DNA from: Escherichia phage MN04
Reading direction: 5' to 3' (one strand)
DNA: 64,000 bases
Sequence record: MT129654.1
The notes beneath the pieces are model-generated. The model worked only from the letters and a program-made list of their open reading frames with translations, was not told the origin of the DNA and did no database searches. Position numbers and translations under genes: made by a program. Below, piece by piece: positions 37,140 to 61,851 of this stretch (position 1 is the stretch's first letter; every line of letters starts with the position of its first letter).

Positions 37140-37185
37140 GTTTACAAGGTCTATAGACATGATACTATAGACCTATCAAAACAAA
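37140..37185 (+). promoter_or_regulatory. Early promoter module
   Basis: GTTTACA, 17-bp spacer, TACTAT, conserved AGACCTATCAAAACA. Confidence 0.6.
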
Positions 37186-37208
37186 CCCAACCTAACGGAA
37201 ACAAAAAA

Positions 37209-37502
37209 ATGAAAACTTATCAAGAATTTATCAAAGAATCGACAGATTTGTATTCCATTAACAAAGCGGCTATGGCCGATATTAGTAGCGATATTAAAAG
37301 AGCCTTTGGCTCAGGTGATGTTGATAAGGCTCAGCAAATTACTATTACAGTAAATGGTAAACCTGTTAGTATAGCATTCAATACGGTTAAAAAGAAATAT
37401 TATATTAATCTTGGTGATGATATCCACTTTACAAAATATAAGACTTTTTCCGGTCTTACCAAAGATAAAGTAGTTTCTAAAATCAAAGAAATTACAAAAT
37501 AA
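37209..37502 (+). CDS. Internal-protein-like protein (ipI-locus) with capsid targeting sequence
   Basis: N-terminus MKTYQEFIKES; 97 aa; early promoter upstream. Confidence 0.65.
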   Translation: MKTYQEFIKESTDLYSINKAAMADISSDIKRAFGSGDVDKAQQITITVNGKPVSIAFNTVKKKYYINLGDDIHFTKYKTFSGLTKDKVVSKIKEITK

Positions 37503-37504
37503 TT

Positions 37505-37550
37505 GTTTACAACGGGCTTTAGTTGATGATACTATAGCCCTATCAAAACA
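37505..37550 (+). promoter_or_regulatory. Early promoter module
   Basis: GTTTACA ... GATACTATAGCCCTATCAAAACA. Confidence 0.6.
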
Positions 37551-37571
37551 AATGAGTGATTGGAGAATAAA

Positions 37572-37757
37572 ATGAAACGTTGTGAATTAATTAGAAATGT
37601 TACTGCACTGACCGCCGTTACTGCTTTTGGCTTTAGTATGTTTGCAGGATTCATGTTGGATTTGCTTACAACTTCCGAGAATACAATCTCTTTAGTAGTG
37701 GCATTCTTAATTGGTTCAATCTCTTTCGTTATGGATAAAATCTCTAAAGGTGAATAA
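37572..37757 (+). CDS. Small membrane protein (hypothetical)
   Basis: 61 aa from ATG 37572 (GGAG RBS); two hydrophobic helices. Confidence 0.45.
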   Translation: MKRCELIRNVTALTAVTAFGFSMFAGFMLDLLTTSENTISLVVAFLIGSISFVMDKISKGE

Positions 37758-38158
37758 TGAACGTTGAATATTATGTATATGCGGATTACGAAAATAATCC
37801 GTCTAAAGATGAAGATAATCGTTTAGGTGTTGATGCTTTTGAATCCCCTGCAGCAGCATGGCAATGGGTTGAAAGTACTGATATTCCTTACCGTTATATT
37901 GAAGTGGTAGACCATGCAGGAAACAAGTATCCTAAGGAAGCATATGTTCCTTCCGGAAAGGTAAATTTCCTTTTGTTTGCGGGTGATAATTATTATCCAC
38001 GCGGTGGGTATACTGATTTAATCGCTAAAGCCTTCTCTGAAGATGAACTGCACGATATCATTAAAGAAAACGAGAATAAGCCTCTTTACGGTTCTAATCG
38101 TTTTGGTTGGTGGCAGATTGTTAATGCCAATACCCACACTATTGTAGACGAGGGTTAA
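37757..38158 (+). CDS. Hypothetical protein
   Basis: 133 aa; ATG overlaps upstream stop (TAATG). Confidence 0.5.
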   Translation: MNVEYYVYADYENNPSKDEDNRLGVDAFESPAAAWQWVESTDIPYRYIEVVDHAGNKYPKEAYVPSGKVNFLLFAGDNYYPRGGYTDLIAKAFSEDELHDIIKENENKPLYGSNRFGWWQIVNANTHTIVDEG

Positions 38159-38449
38159 ATGTTATACGTTAAGGTTACTAATCCAGAGAATGGCTATAAA
38201 TCCGATCAGGTTGCAGCTGAGTTGTTGATTCGAAATTACGGCAAAGATGCTGTGCTTGATGTTCAACAGGTTAATATTGGCCGTAGTTCAAGCGATGTTA
38301 AACTCAAAGTTAACGGCCATCGCTATAATTCTGTTAACTTTACTTTTTATACTGCAACTGAAAATGGATTGGTCGAATACGACATCTTTAAAAATCCTTT
38401 GAAGATTGCTTCTATTAAACTTGATTATATTAATATGTGGCCACAATGA
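38159..38449 (+). CDS. Hypothetical protein
   Basis: 96 aa; tight spacing to upstream stop. Confidence 0.5.
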   Translation: MLYVKVTNPENGYKSDQVAAELLIRNYGKDAVLDVQQVNIGRSSSDVKLKVNGHRYNSVNFTFYTATENGLVEYDIFKNPLKIASIKLDYINMWPQ

Positions 38450-38922
38450 ATATTAAATTCGGACAAGTTATTCCTAAAGGTTATGCGATTGAAATTGAAA
38501 CCTGGGAAAATGATGGCGATAACTATAAAACCCAGACTATATTTGGCGTAGAAGAACAAGAAATCCAACAGTACAAATATATCCTAGAACTTTTCCATGG
38601 TTCGCATTGCAACAACCCGGATAAATGCGGTAATTCGGAATGGGACGTAGTTAAGCATTTGGTTATTGCTCACATTGAATCCGGTGTAAAATCAGGCCAA
38701 TTGACTCCTGAATTTTTAGATAAAGTCCTCGGTATCCAAGACTTAGAAGCCTTGCTGAACGATGACGAAGAAGAATACTACTTGAATGAAGCCCTTACTG
38801 AGCTCCTTGGTATGGCTTGTGAATATGGTGGCGATTTTATCCGTGCAATTTCTTATGTCAAGCTGTATATCATTGAAGAAGAAATTAAAATCCCTGATGT
38901 GAAAGCACTTGATATGCTTTAA
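38446..38922 (+). CDS. Hypothetical acidic protein
   Basis: ATG 38446 overlapping upstream stop (ATGA); 158 aa. Confidence 0.5.
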   Translation: MNIKFGQVIPKGYAIEIETWENDGDNYKTQTIFGVEEQEIQQYKYILELFHGSHCNNPDKCGNSEWDVVKHLVIAHIESGVKSGQLTPEFLDKVLGIQDLEALLNDDEEEYYLNEALTELLGMACEYGGDFIRAISYVKLYIIEEEIKIPDVKALDML

Positions 38923-39051
38923 GAATTATGTGATATTATTACTCTATCATTAATACCCTCTATTACCAAAGGTTCTTCCCTCAAAGAGCCTTTCATAATA
39001 GACAAGGTCTATTAATCAAACTTACTTTACTTAATTTTATTTGAGGTGTTT

Positions 39052-39323: not shown

Positions 39324-39397
39324 GGCCCTGTAGCTGGACGGTCAAGCGAGCGACTCATAATCGCTGGATGGTGGTTCGATTCCACCCAGGGCCACCA
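39324..39397 (+). tRNA. tRNA-Met (anticodon CAU; could be Ile2 if lysidine-modified)
   Basis: Perfect 7-bp acceptor stem, anticodon stem AGCGA/TCGCT with loop CTCATAA, T-arm GGTGG-TTCGATT-CCACC, encoded CCA. Confidence 0.8.
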
Positions 39398-39401
39398 ATT
39401 T

Positions 39402-39476
39402 GGATGTGTAGCTCAGTGGTAGAGCAGTTGACTGTTAATCAATTGGTCCATGGTTCGAATCCATGCATGTCCGCCA
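39402..39476 (+). tRNA. tRNA-Asn (anticodon GUU)
   Basis: Cloverleaf: D-arm GCTC/GAGC, anticodon loop CTGTTAA, T-arm CATGG-TTCGAAT-CCATG, acceptor with two G-U pairs, CCA. Confidence 0.75.
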
Positions 39477-39480
39477 AATA

Positions 39481-39556
39481 CGAGGCATAGCTCAGAAGGA
39501 AGAGCAACGGTCTTCTAAACCGTAGGTCGTAGGTTCGATCCCTACTGTCTCGACCA
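39481..39556 (+). tRNA. tRNA-Arg (anticodon UCU)
   Basis: Cloverleaf: D-arm GCTC/GAGC, anticodon stem ACGGT/ACCGT loop CTTCTAA, T-arm GTAGG-TTCGATC-CCTAC, CCA. Confidence 0.85.
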
Positions 39557-39872: not shown

Positions 39873-39909
39873 GGCCCTTCCGAAAGGTTGGGCCTTTTTT
39901 GTATAAATA
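39873..39909 (+). repeat. Terminator hairpin plus late promoter cassette, copy 1
   Basis: GGCCCTTCCGAAAGGTTGGGCC, T-run, then GTATAAATA; near-identical copy at 40496. Confidence 0.7.
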
Positions 39910-39935
39910 TACAGTAAACTAACTTAGGAAATAAT

Positions 39936-40490
39936 ATGAAACTTTTAAAATATTTGAGTTGGATTCTGTTGGTCCCACTAGATTTTATCTCTATGGTTCT
40001 AGCCGTTATCCTTGCGCCTTTTGTGGTTCCTTTCCACAATAAAAAGACTGGTAAATTGCCGTACGGTTTTGATTGGATGATGACATACGATAATCCAATT
40101 GACGGTGACAAAGGTCATATTAAACGTTGGGCTAAAATCAGGAAAATGCCTGGCGGTGTTTATCTCCAGAGGGTAGCTTGGCTATGGCGAAATAAAGCTT
40201 ATAACTTTGCTTACCATAAACTCGGTCGCGATTGTAGCTCAGAATTCCATTATCGTGGTAATCCTGATGTGGAATCAGGTTCTCCTGATAAAGCTCACCA
40301 TGGTTGGTTGTGGATGTGGAATGATGACGCCTGGGGTGTATTTGCTTCAGTTCCTTATCTTAAGGTCGGTGGAATCACATTTTACCTTCGCGTGTACTGT
40401 GGCTGGAAGCTTAAGAGTCTTTTGTCTCGTAAAATCCCTAAAGCTATGTTAGCCTTCCACGTGAACCCGTTCCGGTTCTACAAGAACTGA
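39936..40490 (+). CDS. Membrane-anchored hypothetical protein (late-promoter driven)
   Basis: 184 aa; N-terminal TM helix (LSWILLVPLDFISMVLAVILAPFVVPF); Trp-rich; AGGAA RBS. Confidence 0.55.
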   Translation: MKLLKYLSWILLVPLDFISMVLAVILAPFVVPFHNKKTGKLPYGFDWMMTYDNPIDGDKGHIKRWAKIRKMPGGVYLQRVAWLWRNKAYNFAYHKLGRDCSSEFHYRGNPDVESGSPDKAHHGWLWMWNDDAWGVFASVPYLKVGGITFYLRVYCGWKLKSLLSRKIPKAMLAFHVNPFRFYKN

Positions 40491-40495
40491 TTTAC

Positions 40496-40531
40496 GGCCC
40501 TTCCGAAAGGTTGGGCCTTTTTGTATAAATA
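40496..40531 (+). repeat. Terminator hairpin plus late promoter cassette, copy 2
   Basis: Same 36-bp sequence as 39873-39909 with one fewer T. Confidence 0.7.
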
Positions 40532-40559
40532 GATAAGTTAATTAACACAGGAAACAATA

Positions 40560-41177
40560 ATGAAAACTTACAATGAATTTTTGAACGAAAGCGTTCTGAC
40601 TGAAGCCAGCGTGCGCATGACTAAAGATATGTGGCAAGCTGCTTATGATAAAATTTCCGGGACTAAAACCACTACCGAGTTCTTTAAAAACGTTTATGAT
40701 ATGTATGGTTTTGATACTAGTAGCCAGAAAGAATATTACAAAGCTTCCAAAGCTTTTAAAGATATCGTAGCCGGTGGCGCTACTAAGCCTGCTAAACCAG
40801 CTAAAGCTCCTGTTTCTAAACCCGTGGCTCAGACCAAAGTTGCAGCACCGAAACCGACACCTAAAGCAGAGCCTGTAAAAGAAGCTCCTAAACCTAAAAT
40901 CAAGTTCGACACCAGCACTATTGTTAAAAAATATAACCAGCTGGCTTCTTTGGTTTCTGAAATCGAATCCGAAACTAAACAACTCGTTCGAGAATTCAAC
41001 GCCCTTCGTAATGGGCAGCACATTAACAACCTGGATACCCCAGACCTCTATCGTCTTTACCTGACGGTTGAAGGCCTTAAGTATACCCAGCCTATGCACG
41101 AAGAAATTGATAACAAACTTCGTCAAGCCCGCCGCCTTGCAGGTGACGCAGCACAGTTCGAAAAGACCCGTAAATAA
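40560..41177 (+). CDS. Internal-protein-like protein with capsid targeting sequence and Pro/Ala/Lys-rich linker
   Basis: N-terminus MKTYNEFLNES; 'KPAKPAKAPVSKPVAQTKVAAPKPTPKAEPVKEAPKPK' linker; late promoter upstream. Confidence 0.65.
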   Translation: MKTYNEFLNESVLTEASVRMTKDMWQAAYDKISGTKTTTEFFKNVYDMYGFDTSSQKEYYKASKAFKDIVAGGATKPAKPAKAPVSKPVAQTKVAAPKPTPKAEPVKEAPKPKIKFDTSTIVKKYNQLASLVSEIESETKQLVREFNALRNGQHINNLDTPDLYRLYLTVEGLKYTQPMHEEIDNKLRQARRLAGDAAQFEKTRK

Positions 41178-41180
41178 TGA

Positions 41181-41203
41181 AAGGAGACTTTGGTCTCCTT
41201 TTA
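41181..41203 (+). terminator. Rho-independent terminator (AAGGAGAC-TTTG-GTCTCCTT then T-run)
   Basis: 8-bp stem plus T-run right after stop at 41177. Confidence 0.6.
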
Positions 41204-41236: not shown

Positions 41237-41280
41237 GTTTACACCTCCTTTAAATATGATACTATAGACCTATCAAAACA
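41237..41280 (+). promoter_or_regulatory. Early promoter module
   Basis: GTTTACA ... ATGATACTATAGACCTATCAAAACA. Confidence 0.6.
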
Positions 41281-41300
41281 ACAGTGTGAAGGAGAGTAAA

Positions 41301-41564
41301 ATGGATAATTATGGTGAATTGTTTAATTTCTTTATGAAATGCGTTCCTGAAGAATTTGGTGCTACTGTTAACGATATTAAGGTTATCGGTCCTGAACACC
41401 CAGTGTATGAAACCTATGCAGTAATGGGTAACGAAGATGGACAGTGGTATACAATTAAAGTTGTGATTAATATGTTCTCAGCTGAAGGCTACGCCAAAAC
41501 GTCTACCAAAGTTTACCATGATAACGATTTTGATGCAGAAGATTATTTCAATAATATGAAATAA
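41301..41564 (+). CDS. Hypothetical protein
   Basis: ATG 41301 with GGAG RBS (track 41286 is GTG extension); 87 aa. Confidence 0.5.
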   Translation: MDNYGELFNFFMKCVPEEFGATVNDIKVIGPEHPVYETYAVMGNEDGQWYTIKVVINMFSAEGYAKTSTKVYHDNDFDAEDYFNNMK

Positions 41565-41566: not shown

Positions 41567-41596
41567 GTTTACATGGGCCCATGATTGAGATATTAT
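41567..41596 (+). promoter_or_regulatory. Early promoter candidate (GTTTACA ... TATTAT)
   Basis: GTTTACA, 18-bp spacer, TATTAT; GGGCCC-containing inverted repeat spans -10. Confidence 0.45.
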
Positions 41597-41621
41597 GAGC
41601 CCATAATTTGAGGAGAGCATA

Positions 41622-42020
41622 ATGAATATCGAAGATAAAGAAATGCAAGAGTTATATAATTCATTAACACCTGAACAACAAAAAGCTGCCAAAGAATTAG
41701 AGAAAGCTCTTGCTTTCAACTTGGCAAAAACCGATTGGGCCGCCATGTATGAAGAAAAAAGGAGATCGGAAATTGAAGCTGCCGAGAGAAATGAATGGAT
41801 TGTAGAAACCAAGATTTCTGATGGTGGTTGCTCTGTTGAGGTGTCAGCTGTGGTTAAAGGTAGTCATGGCGAAAAATCACTAGGTTGGCATAATGAGGCA
41901 AACAAATATATTGTTCTCTCAACGTCAAAAACTTATGGTCAAAAGGTTCCTGTATCCAAAGCTATTATTAAGCAAGCTCAATGGGAAGCCAATGAAATCT
42001 GCCTCACCAAAATGAAATAA
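41622..42020 (+). CDS. Hypothetical protein
   Basis: 132 aa; GAGGAG RBS. Confidence 0.5.
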
Positions 42021-42023: not shown

Positions 42024-42053
42024 GTTTACAACCCTCAGAGGACGGGGTATAAT
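42024..42053 (+). promoter_or_regulatory. Early promoter (GTTTACA, 18 bp, TATAAT)
   Basis: Consensus hexamers; lies inside the N-terminal extension of track ORF 42022. Confidence 0.6.
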
Positions 42054-42096
42054 GTCCTCATGGATTACAAAATACCAACCGACTGAAGGAAATACT

Positions 42097-42690
42097 ATGA
42101 ATACTTTAAAGAAAATTGTTGAGTTCATCCGTTCTAAACTGGGTACCGCAATGACTCAGAACCTGTCAATCGAAGACCAGTATACTAAAGCTGCTTCTAC
42201 CCTGATTGATAAAATTACTGAACTCCAGACTGCTCATGTTAAGTCTGTGAATGAAGAAAAACGCATTCGTGCATTGGCAAATGAAAAAGACCAACTGGCT
42301 GCTTCTAAAGAACGTGAAATTCGTAAACTGATTGCCGAAGGCGCCGATGTTCAGGTACATGCTAAACTCGGCCTCCTTTATCGTCGTACAGCCACTCAAC
42401 TTCGTAAGAAAGCTGACGATTATATCGAAATGCGTAATGAAATTAAACTGAAGGTCAAGGAACTTGATGACTCTCGCCAGGAACTGGCTGTTAAGCTCGA
42501 GTACATCCGTGAAACTCGTAATATGGCTGCCCTTGGTATTGCTACTGCCGATGATGTGGTTGAAATCGCTGCACTGACTAAGATTGATATTGAAGACACT
42601 CTGATGCGTGTAGAAACGTTTAAAGGCCCACAAGTTGGAATGGATACGACTTCAGCTGATATCGAAGACTACATTAATTCACTTAAGTAA
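42097..42690 (+). CDS. Coiled-coil protein (possible PspA/IM30-like), hypothetical
   Basis: ATG 42097 with GAAGGA RBS, downstream of promoter; 197 aa, heptad-rich, charged. Confidence 0.5.
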
Positions 42691-45732: not shown

Positions 45733-45753
45733 GTTTACTCTGAGGAAAATATT

Positions 45754-45921
45754 ATGTATAATGTTCTTATTGTTTTTGTTACTCACCCACAAGGTGGCGT
45801 AAGGCAGAATACTTCCCAAGTGGTCCAATTTTCTTCGGTAGAGGCTGCTAATCTAGCCGCAACGCGTATTGAAGCAAAAAAATCTGAACTGGGTAAATAT
45901 GAAGTAACTCGTCTTTATTAA
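45754..45921 (+). CDS. Hypothetical 55 aa protein (below ORF-track cutoff)
   Basis: GAGGAAAATATT-ATG RBS arrangement identical to the next gene; open to TAA 45919-21. Confidence 0.35.
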   Translation: MYNVLIVFVTHPQGGVRQNTSQVVQFSSVEAANLAATRIEAKKSELGKYEVTRLY

Positions 45922-45934
45922 TGAGGAAAATATT

Positions 45935-46894
45935 ATGATGTTAGTTATTGGTTCTCGTGCACTGCACCAAGCTGGTCTGATTGAAAGTAAGTATATCGAA
46001 AATTCTGATTGGGATTTCATTGCCGACCAAGGCTCATGGAATCACTTTAAAGCCCGGATGTTCGGCGCTCATGTTCCTGTGGATAATCCTGATGTCCAGG
46101 CCTTTAAATGTATGTACAATGGTAAAGAAACCTATTTTGAAGCTTATATCGTCCGTGCCCTGACTAACGTACGAGAAATCACCGGCGAGCTTCAGGACGA
46201 AGATTTCACCTCAAGTTATCGTCTCCTGAAATATGCCGAAAATCATATTAAAAAGGACCGTCTTACGGGTTTCTATTGGGCCACACCTGATATCTGTCTG
46301 GCCATCAAAATGAGCCATCGTTATCTGAAGAATAACCCTTTCTTTTTGAAGACGATGTCCCACATCAAATACCTTCGTAATAAAGGTGTAACCCTGAATG
46401 AAGAGCTCCAAGAAATCATGCTGCAACGTCAGAAAGAAACGTTGAGCTATTCTCATCCTAAATTGGATGTAAACAAATCATCATTCTTTAATGACACCAT
46501 TTATACGCTAGACCATGACTCTATCCACGAAGCTGTGGCATTGGCTGGACGCCCTGCATATACCTTTTATATGAAAGATGGTTCTGAAGTCATGACCTCA
46601 CGTGAGAAGTTTGAAGCTTTGCCTGAAGCTATTAAACTGGCTGGCGTATATGAAGAAACTTGTGTGTTGGCCCTAGAACGTTCACAGGTTCCTAATGACT
46701 TCAATATTTCACCATCATTAAGTTTCTATATGGCTCTTGAGAAAGTGTGTACCTCAATCACTTCAGGCTGGTTCCGCGAGTATGCCTGGGAAAACTACCA
46801 AGCTGTAGTGAATATGTATAAGACGCTAGGTGAAAATGACTACATCAAGCGATTCCAAGATAACCAACATTTAATTCGTCCTTTCACAAAATAA
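45935..46894 (+). CDS. Hypothetical protein with possible nucleotidyltransferase-fold motif
   Basis: 319 aa; 'VIGSRALHQAG...SDWDFI' resembles GS-x(n)-DxD NTase signature. Confidence 0.5.
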   Translation: MMLVIGSRALHQAGLIESKYIENSDWDFIADQGSWNHFKARMFGAHVPVDNPDVQAFKCMYNGKETYFEAYIVRALTNVREITGELQDEDFTSSYRLLKYAENHIKKDRLTGFYWATPDICLAIKMSHRYLKNNPFFLKTMSHIKYLRNKGVTLNEELQEIMLQRQKETLSYSHPKLDVNKSSFFNDTIYTLDHDSIHEAVALAGRPAYTFYMKDGSEVMTSREKFEALPEAIKLAGVYEETCVLALERSQVPNDFNISPSLSFYMALEKVCTSITSGWFREYAWENYQAVVNMYKTLGENDYIKRFQDNQHLIRPFTK

Positions 46895-46906: not shown

Positions 46907-46950
46907 GTATACAAGGTCTATAGGTGTGATACTATAGACCTATCAAAACA
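46907..46950 (+). promoter_or_regulatory. Early promoter module (GTATAC variant of -35)
   Basis: GTATACAAGGTCTATAGGTGTGATACTATAGACCTATCAAAACA. Confidence 0.5.
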
Positions 46951-46972
46951 ACAGAGTGAAATGGAGAATAAA

Positions 46973-47185
46973 ATGAAACTTTCTAACCAAGCAATCAACA
47001 TGTTAAACGAAGTTCGTGCAGCTGGTGCTAAATGTCTGATGGTTAACACTCGTGACGGTGACCTTCGTCAAGCATTTGGTGAATTGAAATCTGCTGACCT
47101 GGTTAAATGTTCAGTTGGTATTGGTAACGCACTTCGTGTATCCTTATCCCCTAAAGGTAAAATGTACTTTTTCAACAAAAAGTAA
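46973..47185 (+). CDS. Hypothetical protein
   Basis: ATG 46973 with GGAG RBS (alternative ATG 46961); 70 aa. Confidence 0.45.
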   Translation: MKLSNQAINMLNEVRAAGAKCLMVNTRDGDLRQAFGELKSADLVKCSVGIGNALRVSLSPKGKMYFFNKK

Positions 47186-47199
47186 TTGAGGAAAATATT

Positions 47200-49145: not shown

Positions 49146-49175
49146 TATAAATACCTCCTATAATCAGGAGGTATT

Positions 49176-49664
49176 ATGGATATTTTTGATATGTTACGTC
49201 AAGACGAAGGTCTTGATTTAAATCTTTATAAAGACACTGAAGGTTATTGGACTATTGGTATTGGCCAGTTAGTTACCAAGAACCCATCTAAAGATGTTGC
49301 TCGCGCTGAACTTGATAAGCTTATGGGCCGAGTTTGTAATGGTCGTATTACTATGGCTGAAGCTGAACAACTCTTTAATCGTTCAGTGGAAAATGCTCGT
49401 AGAGCTATAATGCGTAATCCTAAATTGAAACCGGTTTATGATGTGCTGGACGAAGTTCGTCGTTGCGCATTGATTAATATGGTCTTCCAAATGGGCGAAG
49501 CTGGTGTAGCAGGATTTACCAACTCTCTGCGTATGCTCCAACAGAAACGTTGGGATGATGCCGCAGTTAACCTGGCGCAGTCTCGTTGGTACAAGCAAAC
49601 CCCGAATCGTGCCAAGCGTGTTATCGCCACTTTTAAAACAGGTACTTGGGCTGCTTATAGATAA
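49176..49664 (+). CDS. e: Lysozyme (endolysin)
   Basis: 162 aa; '[30 protein letters not shown]...' near-collinear with T4 lysozyme. Confidence 0.95.
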
Positions 49665-50345: not shown

Positions 50346-50405
50346 TAAAGCCTATACTGACCCTTAAATCCGTGATAGAATACTTCTATCAACTTAAGGA
50401 ATAAT

Positions 50406-52195: not shown

Positions 52196-52240
52196 GTTTA
52201 CATCTCCTGTAGACGTGGTACTATAGACCTATCAACTACA
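52196..52240 (+). promoter_or_regulatory. Early promoter module with flanking inverted repeat
   Basis: GTTTACA; CTCCTGTAG ... TACTATAGACCTATCAA ... CTACAGGAG. Confidence 0.6.
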
Positions 52241-52252
52241 GGAGATTACAAA

Positions 52253-52711
52253 ATGTCAGAAATTAATTCAGAAGTATTCATCCGCCGCAACAAATTACGT
52301 CGTCAGTTCGAAACCGAATTTCGTGAACTTAACGCGTCCATCAAAAAAGCCGCCATCAAGAGCGGTGTCCCAGCTTTCTTTATTAAGTACTCTAATCACT
52401 TGTTGGACCGTGCTATCCAACGTGAAATTGACGAAAAATATGTTTTCTCTTTGTTCAAGAAGCTCCATAATCATGTTAAAGAAATCCATGAATTTTTAAT
52501 CCAGGAGCCTCTTCCTGACATAGAATCTGAAATTGTCCCAGGTAAAGTGTATCGTCCACTGCGTCTCGAGATTACCGATAAAACCTTATGGTTGGGTATG
52601 ACCGTAGATCGTAAACATCCTGATAAAGGATATTCATTAAAATGTCGTATGGCATTTGTTAACTCTAAACGTTTAGAAGGTAAAACCAGCACGAAAGTAA
52701 TCTATCTTTAA
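52253..52711 (+). CDS. regB: RegB-like endoribonuclease (tentative)
   Basis: 152 aa (T4 RegB 153); early promoter; position between ip genes and tk; assignment by size and synteny, not confirmed alignment. Confidence 0.45.
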   Translation: MSEINSEVFIRRNKLRRQFETEFRELNASIKKAAIKSGVPAFFIKYSNHLLDRAIQREIDEKYVFSLFKKLHNHVKEIHEFLIQEPLPDIESEIVPGKVYRPLRLEITDKTLWLGMTVDRKHPDKGYSLKCRMAFVNSKRLEGKTSTKVIYL

Positions 52712-56290: not shown

Positions 56291-56295
56291 TCAAA

Positions 56296-56322
56296 GGTCT
56301 CACTTCGGTGGGACCTTTTTTC
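56296..56322 (+). terminator. Rho-independent terminator (GGTCTCAC-TTCG-GTGGGACC then TTTTTT)
   Basis: 8-bp stem plus T6 right after stop 56290. Confidence 0.65.
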
Positions 56323-56330: not shown

Positions 56331-56371
56331 GTTTACATCCTCTAGGAACGTGATACTATAGACCTATCAAC
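56331..56371 (+). promoter_or_regulatory. Early promoter module
   Basis: GTTTACA ... GTGATACTATAGACCTATCAACTA. Confidence 0.6.
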
Positions 56372-56387
56372 TAATGAGGAGAACAGT

Positions 56388-56624
56388 ATGAAACTTACAA
56401 GTACTACGGTTTCATTGGAATATGAAATCAATAACCGCCTCCTTGAGATTAAGATATTCGACGACCGAAGTATCTTTGCTGACTACCGAGGGTACAGAAT
56501 TCGTCTAGAAAAGGACGAGCTCAAGGAACCATGGCTCCTTAAAGACACATTAAAGGGTTGTGGGTGTAAGCTGAAGACCACTCAAGCCCAAGAATTAATT
56601 TCTACTATCAACAAATACTGGTGA
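56388..56624 (+). CDS. Hypothetical protein
   Basis: 78 aa; GAGGAG RBS. Confidence 0.45.
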   Translation: MKLTSTTVSLEYEINNRLLEIKIFDDRSIFADYRGYRIRLEKDELKEPWLLKDTLKGCGCKLKTTQAQELISTINKYW

Positions 56625-57367: not shown

Positions 57368-57928
57368 ATGATTATTGAAACAACTGAATTGTTTGGTGAA
57401 CTGACCGCTGAAGTAGTTGATAATGCAATTGTGCTTTCACAAGAAGACGATAAAATCGTACTAACTATCCAAGATATTAAACCACTTTATGATTTAAAGG
57501 TTTTGGATAAAGATGGGTATCTTGATGGACGCCATAGAGCATCGTTTGATATTAACGACGATGTATGGGCCCAGATTTATAAAAATGAAGACGGGTTTAA
57601 TATCGAAACTGATACGGAATGTCTAAGCATTAGGAATTCTAGTAATTTCTTTAAATGTATTTTTAAACTGTTCCAGGAAGAATGCAAGCCTGAAGTTGAA
57701 TGGAAAGTTCCAGGTCAAGATGCGGTGATTCGTTCTAGTGAAACATTCGAAGGTGATGAAGAAGAACTGGATTATGATACCGAATTATCCGTGTATCAAC
57801 ACCAGGGTCGTGATTTGCTATCCTTGACCCAAAGACACGACGGTGAAAATGAAGTGGTATTTACTAAAGACGAGCTAAAAGTTTTAGTCTCTTATCTGAA
57901 CTCTGTTATCCCAACTATGAACCCTTAA
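57368..57928 (+). CDS. Hypothetical acidic protein
   Basis: 186 aa. Confidence 0.5.
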   Translation: MIIETTELFGELTAEVVDNAIVLSQEDDKIVLTIQDIKPLYDLKVLDKDGYLDGRHRASFDINDDVWAQIYKNEDGFNIETDTECLSIRNSSNFFKCIFKLFQEECKPEVEWKVPGQDAVIRSSETFEGDEEELDYDTELSVYQHQGRDLLSLTQRHDGENEVVFTKDELKVLVSYLNSVIPTMNP

Positions 57929-57938
57929 GGAAAATATT

Positions 57939-58391
57939 ATGATTATCAATTCAAACTCTTGGCACGTTAAATTACACGACCGTTTTTATGACCGTCATTC
58001 TCGACCGCACTCTTTGTGTGCTTATTTCTGGAAAATGGTTTGGGCTTGTTTTGCTTGTGCCATTGTTGCAGGTAGTACGCTTTTTGGATTAACTGTTGCA
58101 GGCGCTGGTGTATTAGAGCATTTCTTTGTATTAAGTACTCCCGTTCTGTTGAGTCTAGGGTTTGTTTTAGGGTTGATTGCAATAGCTCTTATTATTGCTC
58201 TATCCATTGGTTTGGCATTAGGTGCGATGAATTTACACGCGTGGTATGATGCACGTAGAGAAGAAAAGGAATGGCAACGTATTCAAGCTGAGCGTGAAGG
58301 CCGAGAAACTAAAGAAAATATCGTCGTCCAATACATTAAAGCTCGTAAATCTAAGATGTGTCCTGTAATCCACTTCGAGAACAAAGAATGA
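57939..58391 (+). CDS. Membrane protein (hypothetical)
   Basis: 150 aa; two long TM segments. Confidence 0.5.
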   Translation: MIINSNSWHVKLHDRFYDRHSRPHSLCAYFWKMVWACFACAIVAGSTLFGLTVAGAGVLEHFFVLSTPVLLSLGFVLGLIAIALIIALSIGLALGAMNLHAWYDARREEKEWQRIQAEREGRETKENIVVQYIKARKSKMCPVIHFENKE

Positions 58392-59398
58392 GAACTGTTA
58401 TGAAAGGCTACTTCGGTAGCCACCTTTATGGAACAAGTACTCCGGAATCTGATGTCGATTTTAAAGAAATCTTTGTTCCACATCCGCGTGATATTCTGTT
58501 AGGTACGGCTATGAACCATACCAACCTGAACACGAATAACACTGCTTCCAAAAACACTAAAGATGATGTTGACCATGAGCTTTATAGTCTGAAATATTTC
58601 TTTAAACTGGCTGCTGAAGGCGAAACCGTTGCTCTGGATATGCTCCACACTCCGCCTGAAATGGTGGTTAAATCTGATTTACCTGATGTATGGAAATTTA
58701 TCCAAGACAACCGTTCTCGGTTCTATACAACCAACATGAAAGCCTATTTAGGGTACGTCCGTAAGCAAGCTTCTAAATATGGTGTTAAGGGTTCTCGACT
58801 GGCTGCTCTGCGTGGTGTACTGGCTATTGTTAACCAGATTCCTGAACAATGGGTCGATTATCAAGAAGACGGTTCGACTAAGCAACGTCGCACTAAGGTA
58901 GAAGATATCAAACATCGACTCCCTGAAAATGAGTTCTGTGAATGGGTATTCCATAACCATGAGAAAACAGGACCTCAAACGTTCTATACTGTTCTCGGAC
59001 GTAAGTACCAAACCACTTTGTCATTAATCGAGCTCAAGCAATCTCTGAATAAGCTCGATGCGGAATATGGTGAACGCGCTCGTAAAGCTGAAGCTAACGA
59101 AGGTATTGACTGGAAAGCTCTGAGCCATGCTTATCGTGCTGGTTATCAGTTGAAGGAAATCTATCAAACTGGTGACCTCCAATATCCTTTACGTACAGCA
59201 CCGTTTATCCTTGAAATCAAACAAGGGCTTCATGCTTTTAAAGATGTACAGGCCGAACTTGAAGCTATCGTTGATGAAGTCGAAACCAATGCTATCTGGG
59301 CCGCTAAGAACGGCATGCCTGAGAAGGTAGACATGAAGTTCTGGGACAAGTTCGTTGAAGAGGTGTACCTTGACAACCACAACGCTTATTACCGCTAA
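58388..59398 (+). CDS. Nucleotidyltransferase-fold protein (hypothetical)
   Basis: ATG 58388 (ATGA overlap; alt 58400); 'GYFGSHLYGTSTPESDVDF' = GS-x11-DxD NTase signature, downstream third Asp (ALDMLH). Confidence 0.55.
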   Translation: MRTVMKGYFGSHLYGTSTPESDVDFKEIFVPHPRDILLGTAMNHTNLNTNNTASKNTKDDVDHELYSLKYFFKLAAEGETVALDMLHTPPEMVVKSDLPDVWKFIQDNRSRFYTTNMKAYLGYVRKQASKYGVKGSRLAALRGVLAIVNQIPEQWVDYQEDGSTKQRRTKVEDIKHRLPENEFCEWVFHNHEKTGPQTFYTVLGRKYQTTLSLIELKQSLNKLDAEYGERARKAEANEGIDWKALSHAYRAGYQLKEIYQTGDLQYPLRTAPFILEIKQGLHAFKDVQAELEAIVDEVETNAIWAAKNGMPEKVDMKFWDKFVEEVYLDNHNAYYR

Positions 59399-59594
59399 AG
59401 AAGAAATTAACGTCTTTCTATCGTATGGAAGACCTCATAAAACTCGACGTTGGTATCTTGAAGCTGTCTGTAAAGAAACCGGACGTCGAGTCAATGTCAA
59501 ATACGTATGTAAACCGTCTCCCAAACAAACTCGCAGGTTTGTTAACTGGGCTATCAATACTATAAGATTCCATAATTTTTGGAGTGCAATATAA
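59355..59594 (+). CDS. Small basic ORF, questionable
   Basis: TTG-initiated, overlaps 3' end of upstream gene; terminator follows directly. Confidence 0.25.
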   Translation: MKRCTLTTTTLITAKEEINVFLSYGRPHKTRRWYLEAVCKETGRRVNVKYVCKPSPKQTRRFVNWAINTIRFHNFWSAI

Positions 59595-59616
59595 GGGCCG
59601 TATGGCCCTTTTTTTG
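59595..59616. terminator. Bidirectional terminator (GGGCC-GTAT-GGCCC then T7)
   Basis: Separates plus-strand early unit from convergent minus-strand collagen-like gene. Confidence 0.65.
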
Positions 59617-59617
59617 T

Positions 59618-60373
59618 TTACGAAGTCACTGTTTGTTCGGCTACTAACAATGCAGAGGTTATTGTAAAGTTGCCGCCATTTGGCGTAACAGTTATAGCTG
59701 TACCATTGGTTGCCATTGGCCCATCTTTATCAATGCTAAAGAACGTCGTAAAAGACAAAATATCTGTAGCATTTTCTGGACGGTTCTGTATATAGGAGTT
59801 TCCGTTGGTTCCAACGAAATTTAATGTTATACTTCGAGCTTGCGAGACTCCTGTAAAATTACCAATAAGGTTGAGTTTAAACATTAGGCTTCTGTCTTGC
59901 TTATATGGCCACATCTTATCATCAGCGGTTCTAAAAAACGGAGATAGAGTCCCTGCTGTCGGCGGAATCCCCTTTAAAATACTAATTATGTTTGAAGCCG
60001 CACCATTAGTTAATAGAACGTTTATACCACTCCAAAACACTTCTGATTTTCTTCTCTTTCCTGCTGTTGCAGTCAAAAAATCATCTACTGTTCCACTATT
60101 ACCCTCATCAATCCATAATTGGTATGAAGACTTTCCTGGTTCACCTTGAACTCCCGGGTCGCCAGGATTTCCCGGGTCACCTTTATCACCTTTTTGTCCA
60201 GGAGGTCCTGGAATCTGGGTAACTGATTTTGACATCGTTTGAAAGAACCGTTCGCTGTTATCAGTTACGGTATTAGGAAGGACTACCGTTGAACCAAAAA
60301 GATGCCAGTTATCGTCTAATGCTAACTGGACCTTCTCGTTCAATTCATCGATGGTTTTTGCTGATAAAATCAT
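59618..60373 (-). CDS. Collagen-like repeat protein (putative virion fiber or decoration protein), late gene
   Basis: 251 aa; G-X-Y run 'GPPGQKGDKGDPGNPGDPGVQGEPG'; late promoter TATAAATA plus AAGGAG RBS upstream. Confidence 0.65.
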   Translation of the reverse strand: MILSAKTIDELNEKVQLALDDNWHLFGSTVVLPNTVTDNSERFFQTMSKSVTQIPGPPGQKGDKGDPGNPGDPGVQGEPGKSSYQLWIDEGNSGTVDDFLTATAGKRRKSEVFWSGINVLLTNGAASNIISILKGIPPTAGTLSPFFRTADDKMWPYKQDRSLMFKLNLIGNFTGVSQARSITLNFVGTNGNSYIQNRPENATDILSFTTFFSIDKDGPMATNGTAITVTPNGGNFTITSALLVAEQTVTS

Positions 60374-60395
60374 AAACCTTCTCCTTTAAATAAAA

Positions 60396-60403
60396 TATTT
60401 ATA
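60396..60403 (-). promoter_or_regulatory. Late promoter TATAAATA for collagen-like gene
   Basis: TATAAATA on minus strand about 23 nt upstream of ATG 60373. Confidence 0.55.
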
Positions 60404-60409
60404 AAAGTA

Positions 60410-60450
60410 GTTTACACTTTCGTAGAGCATGTTATTATGGACCTATCAAA
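60410..60450 (+). promoter_or_regulatory. Early promoter module
   Basis: GTTTACA ... TGTTATTATGGACCTATCAAATC. Confidence 0.55.
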
Positions 60451-60475
60451 TCTACTGAGTGAAACGGAGAATATA

Positions 60476-61456
60476 ATGTTAACTATCAAAATCAACAAAG
60501 GTATCTATCGCGGTAATGAAATCTCTGGTACGTTCATGAGTTCAGGTAAAACCTGGTTCCCTAATAAAATTCATGAATCCGAAGCTCATCTCGGTGATGG
60601 CAAGGTATTTGTACAGATTGATGGTGTTGAACGTGGTGTATGGGTGTTCAAATGTGACGTTGAAATGGAAGGTGTTGAAGCTCCTGCAATGGTTACTGAA
60701 TCCGCTGAAGAAATGAAACATCGCATCAACAAACGTTTTAAAGTAATGAACATGATGACTAACGGAATCATTGATGGTAAAATTCGTTCCCTTATCATCT
60801 CTGGTGCCGCAGGTATCGGTAAAACGTATTCTTTGGATAAAGCATTACAAAATGCCCACGAAAATGAAACTATCGAATATAAATCAATCAACGGAAAGAT
60901 TAGTGGAATCGGTCTTTACGAGCAGCTTTGGAATAACCGCGGCCCTAATAGTGTTCTTCTTATTGATGATGTTGATGTATTCTCTGACATGGATATCCTG
61001 AACCTTCTTAAAGCTGCATTGGATACCGGTGAGAAACGTAAGGTGTGCTGGAGCACTTCAAGTTCTTATCTCGATGATAAAAATATCGATAAAGAATTCG
61101 AATACGAAGGCACCATCGTGTTCATCACCAACGTTGATATTGATCGTGAATTAGAGCGTGGAACTAAACTTGCTCCACACCTCCAAGCTTTAGTATCTCG
61201 TTCAGTTTACTTAGACCTCGGAGTTCACTCGAATGAAGAGATTATGGTTCGTGTTGAAGACGTTATCCTGTCCACCGATATGATGCAAAACCGAGGTCTG
61301 ACTGATGCTGAGACTTATCAAGCTCTAGCATGGATGAAGGCCAATGTATCTCGTCTTCGTAACGTATCATTACGTACAGCTCTTTATCTGGCGGACTTCA
61401 TTGCCACCGATAAAAATGACTGGAGCGAAATCGCCGAAGTTACACTTCTGAAATAA
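60476..61456 (+). CDS. P-loop ATPase, AAA+-like (hypothetical)
   Basis: ATG 60476 with GGAG RBS; Walker A 'GAAGIGKT', Walker B 'VLLIDDVD'. Confidence 0.6.
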   Translation: MLTIKINKGIYRGNEISGTFMSSGKTWFPNKIHESEAHLGDGKVFVQIDGVERGVWVFKCDVEMEGVEAPAMVTESAEEMKHRINKRFKVMNMMTNGIIDGKIRSLIISGAAGIGKTYSLDKALQNAHENETIEYKSINGKISGIGLYEQLWNNRGPNSVLLIDDVDVFSDMDILNLLKAALDTGEKRKVCWSTSSSYLDDKNIDKEFEYEGTIVFITNVDIDRELERGTKLAPHLQALVSRSVYLDLGVHSNEEIMVRVEDVILSTDMMQNRGLTDAETYQALAWMKANVSRLRNVSLRTALYLADFIATDKNDWSEIAEVTLLK

Positions 61457-61466
61457 AGGTGAAATT

Positions 61467-61808
61467 ATGTTCGAACAATTTATTTACAATCTTTTTAATG
61501 CAGGCCAAACTTTTTCCAAAGCCATGAAACAGTCCGTCGAGGACTATGATAAAGAAGTTATCGACGGATATACCAATAGAGTTTATAAAACGGATTGTGA
61601 AGAAGGAGACTACAGGAGACTGCTCTTGGCAGCGAAGACCCAAGCCTTAATAAATCTAGACCGTAAGCAGGTTAAGTTGGCAGGCGACTTCAGAGATGAA
61701 CTCTGTGCCATCAGGAACGAATACCTTATTCGTATTAAACACCAACGGAAAGAGAACACACAATCCGCCTGGTTTAGTGGGCAAGCCGGTGAAAAAAGTT
61801 TTTATTAG
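61467..61808 (+). CDS. Hypothetical protein
   Basis: 113 aa. Confidence 0.45.
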   Translation: MFEQFIYNLFNAGQTFSKAMKQSVEDYDKEVIDGYTNRVYKTDCEEGDYRRLLLAAKTQALINLDRKQVKLAGDFRDELCAIRNEYLIRIKHQRKENTQSAWFSGQAGEKSFY

Positions 61809-61810
61809 TT

Positions 61811-61851
61811 GTTTACATCTCCAGTAGAAATGATACTATAGACCTATCAAC
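61811..61851 (+). promoter_or_regulatory. Early promoter module with flanking inverted repeat
   Basis: GTTTACA; CTCCAGTAG ... TACTATAGACCTATCAA ... CTACTGGAG. Confidence 0.6.

Follow-up and report, generated by a model that had tools for sequence, protein, structure and literature searches.

Early cassettes and their promoters in the window

The window, by which we mean the whole 64,000-nt stretch of Escherichia phage MN04 that was analysed (MT129654.1), has 92–96% identity to Dhakavirus genomes and, judged by its sequence, belongs to this JS98-like (JS98-group) line of T4-type coliphages. Copies of a promoter module head early cassettes in its 57B–ip–tRNA–e–regB–tk–nrdC region, and the genes behind them are orthologues of the T4 early genes ip, trna.4, e.8, e.6, ipIII, regB, nrdC.10 and nrdC.8. 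The first-pass annotation had called these copies early-promoter modules of a T4-type phage, and the same architecture is indeed found at the orthologous T4 genes.

A search with the block AGACCTATCAA, allowing at most one mismatch, gave 11 matches against 1.31 expected, a number reached in none of 100 shuffles. Nine of them are plus-strand modules with GTTTACA starting at 4250, 37140, 37505, 41237, 46907 (where it reads GTATACA), 52196, 56331, 60410 and 61811, which bears out, position for position, the nine near-identical strong copies first annotated. The other two matches (61311, plus strand, and 22374, minus strand) were rejected as modules; both lie inside coding sequence and have no promoter context. 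A generic sigma-70 scan showed no enrichment over shuffles (61 vs 59.9), and it is the specific extended module that repeats.

The common geometry is TTTACA-N16-TACTAT with TG at −15/−14; the spacing had been annotated as about 17 bp, and measured between these two hexamers it is 16 bp, or 18 bp in module 37505. The block follows TACTAT at once and is itself followed by an A/C-rich leader of 20–35 nt, a GGAG-type Shine-Dalgarno (SD) sequence and ATG. Upstream, an A/T-rich UP-like region extends back into the 3' end of the ORF before it, with the stop codon 3–13 nt before the −35 element in 8 of 11 cases.

The first module (4250–4311) precedes an antisense 88-aa ORF (4309–4575) that has a long minus-strand ORF on either side. 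The others head the internal-protein (ip) cassette (37140–37211), a trna.4-like gene (37505–37574), an e.8-like gene (41237–41303), regB (52196–52255), a 78-aa ORF (56331–56390), an nrdC.10-like gene (60410–60478; block GGACCTATCAA, −10 TATTAT) and an nrdC.8-like gene (61811–61868); the GTATACA module spans 46907–46975. The regB gene (52253–52711, plus strand; RegB Pfam match 2.2e-69) codes for an endoribonuclease whose T4 counterpart cuts GGAG SD sites in early mRNAs (PMC3014915). Three of the weaker variants annotated earlier are good plus-strand T4-type early promoters without the block: 41567–41624, 42024–42099 (TTTACA-17-TATAAT, heading an e.6-like gene) and 49670–49751, which heads an ipIII-like gene and is orthologous to the T4 ipIII promoter. 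The fourth, at 50802, is doubtful as a module, with AATTAT as −10 and a G+C-rich upstream region.

The conserved block and the predicted start site

By position the block is the discriminator (−6 to −1) plus the bases +1 to +5, counted from a predicted start site. Orthology and consensus point to early timing and place the putative start at the A of ATCAA, after the discriminator AGACCT. T4 early promoters belong to a UP/−35/TGn/−10 class with further consensus regions (PMC2988021), and the CTATCAA core of the block is common to T4's own early promoters; C residues at −3 to −1 are known from RB69, RB49 and 44RR (PMC1524935). The seemingly extra block is the T4-type discriminator and start-site consensus (nnnCTATCAAC), homogenised in this lineage. 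The first-pass annotation had taken it to extend beyond what sigma-70 recognition needs, perhaps as a protein-binding site. This did not hold up: its positions are discriminator and first transcribed bases, within reach of RNA polymerase, and nothing that we found requires a separate binding site.

Among orthologous modules the pairwise differences per site are 0.19 for the UP region, 0.10 for the −35 element, 0.13 for the spacer, 0.013 for TGn/−10 and 0.010 for the block. The module set from public contigs was gathered with the block as search pattern, so that the block looks more conserved in it than it is. Conservation as strong as that of the −10 element might mark AGACCTATCAA as an operator to which a protein of phage or host binds, e.g., an early-promoter shut-off factor, instead of a promoter part. 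The T4 shut-off mechanism is not completely understood (PMC3014915), and the palindrome GTCTATAGAC in some spacers repeats the CTATAGAC of the block. We nevertheless regard an operator as very improbable. The AGNCC part varies between lineages (TACCC, ACAAC or TACCT in T4, AGCCC in putative Karamvirus contigs, TATCCC in Gaprivervirus), and its covariation with the spacer at loops of ~4 to 12 nt fits intrastrand pairing and not a fixed dimer site, while the constant CTATCAA straddles the predicted start site, a place of polymerase contacts.

The near-identity of the block could also stem mostly from recent copying or gene conversion (concerted evolution) and not from selection on each base. The AGACC positions are more uniform among Dhakavirus modules than in T4, identical spacer types such as TCTGCTTTAAACATG recur before unrelated genes, and hybrid modules exist. 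Copying of this kind should, however, have homogenised the spacer too, yet the spacer differs at 0.13 per site against 0.01 for the −10 element and block. Spacers differ between copies as well as between orthologues, and the third base of the block belongs to a stem with the spacer and covaries with it: replacement of its A by C or G is accompanied by a change in the spacer. We therefore judge concerted evolution distinctly unlikely as the main cause.

Pairing between the spacer and downstream sequence

The −35/−10 spacer forms the 5' arm of a hairpin in many modules. Its 3' arm is the end of the −10 element plus the discriminator block for an inner stem, or the leader and SD for an outer stem. 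Significant stems in the window are those of 37140 (folding z −5.7), 52196 (−4.1), 61811 (−3.6), 41567 (−3.3) and 46907 (−3.3); those of 37505 (−1.9), 42024 (−1.4) and 41237 (−1.2) are moderate. Since 4 of 12 window modules have no significant stem (4250, z 0.07; 49670, 0.7; 56331, 0.0; 60410, 1.4), the hairpin is not obligatory. Over 64 module families the mean z is −2.6, with z < −2 in 59%.

The inverted repeats first noticed at 52196 and 61811 proved to be real 10-bp stems. In module 52196 the outer stem TCTCCTGTAG/CTACAGGAGA buries the SD; module 61811 has the inverted repeat TCTCCAGTAG/CTACTGGAG, and its outer stem TCTCCAGTAG/CTACTGGAGG differs from that of 52196 by compensatory changes. 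Modules 37140 and 46907 share the inner stem AGGTCTATAG/CTATAGACCT, which at 37140 encloses the 5' part of the −10 element; in orthologues of this module the covarying pair has changed from T-A to C-G and, elsewhere, to a T.G wobble. The variant block AGCCC of module 37505 pairs with spacer GGGCT. At 41567 the 5' half of the −10 element lies within the stem TGGGC.CATGAT/ATTATG.GCCCA, and at 42024 a local inverted repeat GAGGAC/GTCCTC brackets the −10. Weak pairing with the SD is available to the spacers of 41237 (CCTCCTT with AAGGAG, an outer stem) and 56331 (TCCTC with GAGGA).

Both pairings show compensatory changes. For the inner stem, 9 families combine block AGACC with spacer GGTCT, 11 combine AGCCC with GGGCT, and there is one cross case; 96.2% of cells are paired against 89.5% after shuffling, covariation is 0.252 against 0.138, with none of 500 shuffles reaching the observed value, and pairing in slid controls is 27–51%. 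For the outer stem the values are 78.4% vs 71.5% paired and 0.214 vs 0.130, again with 0 of 500 shuffles as high, and the exchanges are UA/AU and GC/UA.

As the 5' arm precedes the predicted start, the cassette's own transcript would be unable to form the hairpin, which can arise only in read-through RNA or single-stranded DNA. In one alignment (A1) 15 cells are sense-strand G.U wobbles and none of the nine unpaired cells is A.C; because the sense and antisense strands fold with the same mean energy, the choice between RNA and DNA turns solely on this count, which stems from a few related families.

The outer stem reaches a putative RegB site. The SDs of modules 37505 and 46907 (GGAGAATAAAA) match all 11 nt of the RegB/S1 cleavage consensus GGAGRAYARAA, and others come close, several deviating at 1–3 positions of the 3' A-rich part; among block-bearing modules the SD is GGAG in 8 of 9 and GGAA at 37140. 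RegB itself is encoded behind module 52196, and secondary structure shields sites from this enzyme (PMC3014915). In modelled read-through RNA 21 of the 64 families have a wholly masked SD (8.6 ± 2.2 when the spacer is shuffled), and the spacer holds an anti-SD tetramer in 24 of 64 (background 7.7%). Mean SD accessibility in the same model does not differ from shuffled-spacer controls (0.37 vs 0.39); only the fully masked fraction does. The inner stem leaves the SD untouched, and the two stem types need not have the same function.

A stem at each cassette boundary that forms only in read-through RNA could be a terminator or attenuator of upstream transcription, insulating each cassette as proposed for the promoter-early stem-loops (PeSLs), and the RB49/phi1 PeSL211/210 stem cut lacZ expression about as well as rrnB T1 (PMC2839356). 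We consider this unlikely here: no module stem is followed by a T-run and none was called terminator-like, the sequence after the 3' arm being A/C-rich (ATCAAAACAA or ATTACAAAATG), and outer-stem loops of 23 nt are atypical of intrinsic terminators. Such a role would also make redundant the separate terminators just upstream of two modules. One is a canonical plus-strand terminator (56293–56318; 11-bp stem, then TTTTCGTTTTA) 13 nt before module 56331, and the other a G+C-rich, terminator-like hairpin with T-runs (41180–41201; flagged on the minus strand, TTTT next on the plus strand) before module 41237.

We think it probable that the copies are phage immediate-early promoters of T4 type whose spacer is reused as a hairpin 5' arm. 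Unmodified host sigma-70 RNA polymerase would use them right after infection, each heading a very compact cassette (UP-like region, GTTTACA, 16-bp spacer, TGn-extended TACTAT, AGACCT). The spacer, read by the polymerase for length only, would gain a second role and mark read-through RNA at every cassette boundary. There the outer stem would mask the SD/RegB site, so that a gene would be translated, and inactivated by RegB, mainly from its own early transcript. The inner stem would give a stable boundary structure, with pausing, attenuation or protection of 3' ends as possible effects. Finally, ~50 bp of near-identity in a dozen copies would offer homology patches to phage recombination, and it is at such places that some of the indels and hybrid promoters arose.

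Recombination at the modules and comparison with known systems

The copies had also been proposed as shuffling signals. In its strong form this idea has them selected for targeting cassette insertion, excision or exchange, possibly through mini-circles, as reported for RB49 and phi1 (PMC2839356), or through a specific protein that recognises the stem-loop and binds or cleaves DNA. Clean crossovers inside modules do occur in relatives. UP19 lacks window positions 41574–42008, with the junction in a shared ATGAAATAAnnTGTTTACA (left crossover at 41567, right at 42024), and a deletion in VR5 joins module 41237 to the 42024 leader (right crossover at 42024). A further hybrid at 41237, in LHE83, combines a 60410-type spacer with the e.8 leader, and in CLB_P2 the gene that directly follows the 56331 SD has been replaced through a crossover within this SD. 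In UP19 and CLB_P2, ip/denV cassettes have been swapped with a breakpoint at promoter 49670. Module 60410 is the right boundary both of a window-specific 1-kb insertion and of an alternative module-plus-ORF cassette in JS98 and UP19, which carry an extra ORF between two modules with identical spacers. Different upstream halves stand before orthologous genes, and the ip cassette (37209–37502) is replaced in four relatives, the breakpoints falling directly behind the conserved targeting peptide MKTYQEFI and at the promoter that follows.

Covering 5.3% of the sequence, modules hold 14 of 74 breakpoints (p = 3e-5). Against a fairer null of gene junctions the excess disappears: modules stand at 11 of 64 junctions and take 14 of the 65 junction-located breakpoints (p = 0.22). 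Of the 37 events, 11 touch a module and most do without one. A 165-bp indel (45757–45921) sits between two copies of TGAGGAAAATATTATG with no module, other indels use SD microhomology or are insertions of homing endonuclease genes, and T4 recombines readily at 6–10 bp microhomologies without a special signal (PMC9391042). The conserved positions also coincide exactly with the contacts of RNA polymerase. Dedicated recombination signals seem unlikely to us, and what stands of the earlier proposal is that some crossovers fall inside modules.

Early promoters with a spacer-derived hairpin arm, the reading that we prefer, have known counterparts. T4 early promoters (Pe) likewise have a GTTTAC(A/T) −35, a TG-extended −10 and an A/T-rich upstream region, and are sited before orthologous early genes. 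The T4 denV promoter (TTTACATCTCCTGTAGgtatgaTACTATAGACCTATCAACTACAGGAGA) equals module 52196, AGACCTATCAA and the CTACAGGAGA leader included, except at four spacer positions. Of the T4 promoters in the region, 8 of 11 have a CTATCAA-like (C/T)ATCA(A/G) or GTCAAC start region. In contrast to T4's varied set (TACCC, ACAAC, TACCT), the window lineage has a nearly fixed AGACC(T) discriminator and (G)ATACTAT −10.

PeSLs are known from RB49/phi1, PST/T4 and nt-1/KVP40 (Arbiol 2010, PMC2839356; Comeau 2014, PMC4122927), and the likeness to them pointed out in the first-pass annotation is sound, as the module anatomy fits the published descriptions: AT-rich region, sigma-70-like early promoter, stem-loop, SD and ATG. 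A subclass with the stem overlapping the −10 element, as in the window, has already been described. Both kinds of element cluster in hyperplastic early regions, and some indels cross over inside the motif. Unlike PeSLs, the window stems are not of GGGG/CCCC type, have no U-tract after them and use the discriminator or SD as 3' arm, and breakpoints at the window modules show no statistical excess over other gene junctions. In the two PeSL papers JS98-type phages appear for the g43 locus only. At T-even IP loci, Repoila et al. (1994), as summarised in PMC2839356, described conserved flanks like those of the window ip cassette; in that summary the observation covers IP loci only.

Hairpins that sequester the ribosome-binding site in long transcripts and contain an internal promoter are known from T4 e, soc, 49 and I-TevI (PMC3014915) and from Aeh1 mobE. 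As in the window, the SD lies in the 3' arm and the 5' arm upstream of the internal promoter's predicted start, so that only longer, upstream-initiated RNAs fold (PMC3014915). At gene e of the window itself, TATAAATA adjoins a CCTCC...GGAGG hairpin, arranged as in the T4 precedent. In the known cases a late promoter delays translation, whereas the window modules have an early promoter whose −35/−10 spacer is the 5' arm, and about one third of module families mask the SD in our models. The likeness of the window SDs to T4 RegB/S1 sites (GGAGRAYARAA) is here one of sequence alone. The element is real but of a known kind, a T4 early promoter or PeSL, one for each of a dozen early cassettes; the new detail is a spacer that doubles as the 5' arm of a hairpin.

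Promoter anatomy and genomic setting of the modules

The near-invariant stretch directly after the -10 hexamer TACTAT (the block) could be found 11 times in the window when AGACCTATCAA was searched with at most one mismatch, against 1.31 expected, and 0 of 100 dinucleotide-preserving shuffles reached 11. Nine of these matches lie on the plus strand behind a -35 heptamer GTTTACA (GTATACA at 46907) and belong to early-promoter modules that start exactly where the first-pass annotation had placed them (4250, 37140, 37505, 41237, 46907, 52196, 56331, 60410 and 61811). The remaining two are within coding sequence and lack promoter context. Of the weaker variants proposed in the same annotation, 41567, 42024 and 49670 lack the block but are otherwise good promoters of this type; 50802 is doubtful.

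The -35 and -10 elements are arranged as TTTACA-N16-TACTAT in eight of the nine block copies (N18 at 37505), and as TTTACA-17-TATAAT or TATTAT in the block-less variants. This is the layout of T4-type early promoters, with -35 GTTTAC(A/T) and -10 TAnnnT at sigma-70 spacing. A TGn extended -10 (TG at -15/-14) precedes the -10 in all block copies listed by the scan, and the 30 nt upstream of the modules form a UP-like region with a mean A+T content of 74% (window background 60 ± 9%). The -10 is followed directly by the block, then by a leader of 20-35 nt, a GGAG-type Shine-Dalgarno sequence (SD) and ATG. A pattern search of the window with an 18-nt gap, longer than the true spacing, gave almost no matches; the modules were recovered by scanning for hexamers. 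Generic sigma-70 and terminator scans of the window showed no enrichment over shuffles and are therefore uninformative on their own.

If TACTAT is placed at -12 to -7, the block consists of the putative discriminator AGACCT (-6 to -1) followed by the predicted start region A(+1)TCAA. It had been suggested that the block extends beyond what sigma-70 polymerase requires, but from this predicted start it would span -6 to +5 and fall within the polymerase-contacted region. As T4-type early promoters, the modules would be used by unmodified host polymerase right after infection. Three other candidates were dropped by eye: an IHF site (WATCAANNNNTTR), as the TTR part is absent; a NAD-capping start consensus, which requires a purine at -1 where the module has T; and a late or MotA-type promoter within the block, which has neither TATAAATA nor TGCTT. 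The invariant part of the block-bearing modules also holds a small inverted repeat (e.g., 37160-37178), TGATA and TATCA 9 nt apart. TGATA consists of TGn and the start of the -10, TATCA lies in the block, and the two pair as a 5-bp stem in many of the predicted folds. The repeat may have arisen by chance from two conserved elements.

The window shares 92-96% identity with Dhakavirus genomes (the JS98-like T4-type coliphages UP19, CLB_P2, LHE83, IME281 and JS98). By the JS98/UP19 annotation, 36-64 kb corresponds to the T4 early region 57B, ip, trna.x, tRNAs, e.x, e, ipIII, vs.x, regB, vs, tk, rI, mobD.x and nrdC.x, and ∼19-36 kb, the portion of 1-36 kb covered by the fetched relatives, holds the structural genes 4, 2, 3, 53, 5-12 and wac. 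Eleven of the 12 modules are in the 28-kb early region (36-64 kb), in the same direction as the genes, and one is in 1-36 kb. Promoter-early stem-loop (PeSL) elements likewise prefer hyperplastic, non-core regions. In 8 of 11 modules, only 3-13 nt separate the preceding stop codon from the -35. In position and orientation the modules precede orthologues of T4 early genes, and regB (Pfam REGB_T4 match 2.2e-69) is one of the genes that a module heads.

Rfam returned only three tRNAs (39324-39553) at gathering scores in 36-64 kb, and no covariance-model match for the modules. In JS98 and UP19 the orthologues of these tandem tRNA genes carry the annotations Met, Asn and Arg; the middle gene is missing in VR5, and in LHE83 the region has received a homing endonuclease gene. 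The module at 4250 drives an 88-aa ORF (4309-4575; no Pfam match). This antisense ORF is flanked on each side by a long minus-strand ORF, 2927-4207 (426 aa) and 4624-6183 (519 aa). Judged by size and position, these are putative gp24 and gp23 head genes, so that the early promoter would be aimed into the 3' end of a late gene.

Two hairpins with one arm in the promoter spacer

Folding and covariation were analyzed with a larger module set, drawn from public viral contigs with TACTATAGNCCTATCAA (108 stretches; at least 9-12 strict copies per 170-kb genome) and six fetched relatives. The set comprises 175 unique sequences with 156 distinct cores in 71 families defined by downstream sequence, which are partly ascertained via the block and related by descent; 64 families with a recognizable SD and ATG were folded. 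For the folding, accessibility and masking tests, the slice taken as spacer (the -35/-10 interval) starts 5 nt inside the -35 heptamer and omits the last 3 spacer bases. It still includes the 5' arm, and the folding and masking conclusions therefore stand.

Folds from -35 to ATG have a mean z of -2.6 against dinucleotide shuffles in the 64 families, with z < -2 in 59%. The modules thus combine an early promoter with a stable stem-loop followed by SD and ATG, as in PeSL elements, and compensatory changes back the stems. Within the window, strong stems (z -3.3 or lower) were seen for five of the 12 modules (37140, 41567, 46907, 52196 and 61811), moderate stems for three (37505, 42024 and 41237) and non-significant stems for four (4250, 49670, 56331 and 60410). 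Both inverted repeats quoted in the first-pass annotation, at 52196 and 61811, are perfect 10-bp stems.

Two pairing registers could be distinguished. In the inner stem, spacer GGNCTAT(AG) pairs with (CT)ATAGN'CC, which comprises the block and the 3' part of the -10 before it. Covariation is seen at the variable base: AGACC occurs with GGTCT (9 families), AGCCC with GGGCT (11 families), and AGGCC with GGCCT or GGTCT, with one cross case. In a gap-free alignment chosen by the 5' arm alone, 96.2% of cells are paired compared to 89.5 ± 1.1% in shuffles (0/500) and 27-51% for slid controls. The covariation score is 0.252 (0.138 shuffled; 0/500), and exchanges are seen at pair 5-26 (GC 12, UA 11, UG 2) and pair 3-28 (GC 21, AU 3). 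In the outer stem, spacer TCTCCTGTAG pairs with leader and SD CTACAGGAGA, with the variants TCTCCAGTAG/CTACTGGAG, TCTCCATTAG/CTAATGGAGA and TTCTCCTCATG/CATGAGGAGAA. Here 78.4% of cells are paired in a single fixed register (71.5 ± 1.5% shuffled) and the covariation score is 0.214 (0.130 shuffled; 0/500), with UA/AU and GC/UA exchanges. These sequence comparisons show selection for pairing in the hairpins that T4-type early promoters contain, with the promoter spacer as one arm.

The block had also been read as a possible protein-binding site. The distance of the 5' arm from the -10 varies by family, giving loops of ∼4 to 12 nt, and therefore suits intrastrand pairing better than a fixed protein site. 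As to the nature of the paired strand, sense and antisense folding energies do not differ in the module families (-11.5 vs. -11.3 kcal/mol), so folding energy does not separate RNA from DNA. The inner-stem alignment contains 15 cells with sense-strand G.U wobbles, contributed by a few related families, and no A.C among the unpaired cells; this pattern mildly favors a sense-strand structure, most simply RNA.

Gene-content changes at the modules and elsewhere

The modules had been proposed to act as shuffling signals. We compared gene content by chained alignments of the window with five Dhakavirus genomes over 36-64 kb, which gave 37 unique events, and several of these are clean crossovers inside modules. 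In UP19 the stretch 41574-42008 is absent and the junction falls in ATGAAATAAnnTGTTTACA, a sequence common to modules 41567 and 42024. In VR5 module 41237 is fused, through the block, to the leader of 42024, with the loss of two genes. LHE83 has a hybrid module made of a 60410-type spacer and the e.8 leader, and in CLB_P2 the gene after 56331 is replaced with the crossover in the SD. JS98 and UP19 carry an additional ORF between a pair of modules that have the same spacer, at a site with one module in the window. In four relatives the ip cassette 37209-37502 has been exchanged, from the targeting peptide up to the next module. A peptide MKTY(Q/K)EFI, which we take to be the capsid-targeting peptide of T4 internal proteins, starts several cassettes (37209-37502, 49749 and 50406), and relatives swap the gene bodies but keep peptide and promoter.

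Breakpoints fall in modules more often than expected from sequence coverage (14/74 vs. 5.3%; p = 3e-5). When only junction-located breakpoints are counted, modules show no excess over other gene junctions (14/65, with a module at 17% of junctions; p = 0.22). Orthologous modules are mosaic upstream, with pairwise differences per site of 0.19 in UP, 0.10 in -35 and 0.13 in the spacer against 0.01 in -10, block and leader, the low downstream value arising in part because families were defined by downstream sequence.

Other events occurred without a module: homing endonuclease insertions, changes at a repeated ribosome-binding context, and some with no visible repeat. The ribosome-binding context TGAGGAAAATATTATG is repeated before several internal genes (45738-45770, 45919-45950, 47185-47215 and 57925-57950), and two copies bound a 165-bp indel (45757-45921) that is missing in UP19, LHE83 and VR5; translation-initiation repeats therefore also serve as recombination microhomologies. 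The genes 39936-40490 and 40560-41177 have 5' regions (39873-39957 and 40496-40584) that are 82% identical, and CLB_P2, VR5 and LHE83 each lack one of the two genes. The endpoints differ, a pattern that recombination between the repeats would be expected to give. In T4, recombination takes place at 6-10 bp microhomologies (PMC9391042). We conclude that the modules are homology patches for general recombination. The 37 events in the five-genome comparison give no evidence of a specialized shuffling-signal role, and preferential shuffling at modules is not demonstrable among them. For phage evolution, the claim of special shuffling signals is thereby tempered, since in this sample modules are used no more than other gene boundaries.

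Two further differences in gene content were seen. A 1-kb segment (59392-60427) is missing from JS98, UP19, LHE83 and VR5, while CLB_P2 lacks only 59617-60402. Its minus-strand ORF (59618-60373, 251 aa) combines an Sf6-type tail-needle-knob domain (Phage_tail_NK, 5e-32) with a collagen-like repeat. The early nrdC region, where the segment immediately precedes module 60410, is an odd place for a fibre- or needle-like gene. Conversely, denV, the small ORF before it and the denV module are missing from the window (50358-50364; JS98 counterpart 29963-30436) but denV is present in JS98, UP19, CLB_P2, LHE83, VR5 and T4. MN04 thus appears to have no UV-repair endonuclease V gene at the denV locus.

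Possible roles of the hairpins and comparison with T4

Termination is one of the roles proposed for PeSL elements. The module stems do not have the G+C-rich stem and U-tract of an intrinsic (Rho-independent) terminator: they are followed by ATCAAAAC..., ATTACAAAATG or GTTATCATG, we found no U-tract or T-run after them, and no module stem was picked up by the terminator scan. Separate terminators were found just upstream of two modules (56293-56318 and 41180-41201) and at 59593-59610 and 63336-63358.

Because the spacer with the 5' arm precedes the predicted start, the RNA made from a cassette's own promoter would lack this arm and only read-through RNA or single-stranded DNA would fold. An SD in the 3' arm, with the 5' arm before the predicted start, is a layout that would sequester the ribosome-binding site, and it is strong at 52196 and 61811 and weak at 41237 and 56331. 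In modelled RNAs, the SD has a mean unpaired probability of 0.37 for read-through and 0.64 for self-initiated transcripts. Mean accessibility did not differ between real (0.37), shuffled (0.39) and foreign (0.38) spacers; as shuffled spacers resemble real ones this mean is uninformative, and so is the foreign-spacer control because CTCC is common to many spacers and GGAG to all SDs. Accessibility is bimodal, however, and the SD is fully masked (<0.1) in 21 of the 64 families compared to 8.6 ± 2.2 (maximum 13) with shuffled spacers. In 24/64 families the spacer holds an anti-SD tetramer (7.7% background). The module SDs also fit the RegB/S1 site GGAGRAYARAA, with exact matches at 37505 and 46907.

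The T4 genes e, soc, 49 and I-TevI have a ribosome-binding site that is hidden in long transcripts and free in transcripts from an internal promoter (PMC3014915). The window modules, as far as their sequence tells, share this architecture of an SD-hiding hairpin with an internal promoter. The window itself conserves the classic arrangement of T4 gene e upstream of its lysozyme gene e (49140-49180), where a late-promoter-like TATAAATA adjoins an SD-burying 10-bp hairpin ATACCTCC...GGAGGTAT (-14.1 kcal/mol; CCTCC...GGAGG at ∼49147-49175). Outer stems might allow only the early transcript from the cassette's own promoter to be translated and inactivated by RegB; for inner stems, pausing, attenuation or shielding of the upstream mRNA's 3' end are candidate roles. 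It is conceivable, if rather doubtful, that the spacer is dual-coded as an anti-discriminator/anti-SD arm across Dhakavirus, Tequatrovirus, Karamvirus and Gaprivervirus, giving each early cassette a built-in switch between self-initiated and read-through transcripts. If so, RNA begun at the cassette's own promoter would alone be open to ribosomes and RegB while upstream-derived RNA would be folded shut, and the dual-coded spacer would be a general regulatory principle, apart from the terminator and recombination roles of PeSL elements. The specific hypothesis raised is that read-through RNA is insulated from translation or RegB. For annotation, the analysis offers a precise early-promoter model for JS98-type phages, with predicted starts, leaders and RegB-type ribosome-binding sites, which covers about a dozen cassettes of mostly unknown genes.

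The first-pass placement of the modules among T4-type early promoter/PeSL elements is correct (PMC2839356, PMC4122927), and they are not a new kind of element because T4 has the same module. What is added is a block that reads as discriminator plus start-site consensus, two covarying hairpin registers with an arm in the spacer, and SDs that fit the RegB/S1 site. T4 early promoters are known as UP/-35/TGn/-10 promoters with extra consensus regions (PMC2988021), and early promoters of RB69, RB49 and 44RR have C residues at -3 to -1 (PMC1524935). A block-independent pattern scan of the homologous 36 kb of T4 found 11 early-type promoters of the same design, and those upstream of denV, regB, nrdC.8, ipI, trna.4, e.8 and ipIII are orthologous to promoters of the window. 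Public contigs ascribed to Karamvirus have AGCCC in place of AGACC; we take them to be Karamvirus like CC31 and PG7. The Gaprivervirus P479 module reads TATAATTATCCCATCAAC. The T4 denV promoter, TTTACATCTCCTGTAGgtatgaTACTATAGACCTATCAACTACAGGAGA, differs from the 52196 module at only four spacer positions and has an identical block, whereas other T4 promoters continue after the -10 with TACCCTATCAAC, ACAACTATCAAC (three times), TACCTCATCAAA, TTTTCTATCAGT or AATCTTGTCAAC. Because T4's own promoters carry like start regions, the CTATCAA core at the predicted start is general to T4-type early promoters, and only the AGACC part is lineage-typical. Both hairpin registers are also present in T4, the inner at the ipI, trna.4 and 57989 promoters and the outer at denV, regB and nrdC.8.
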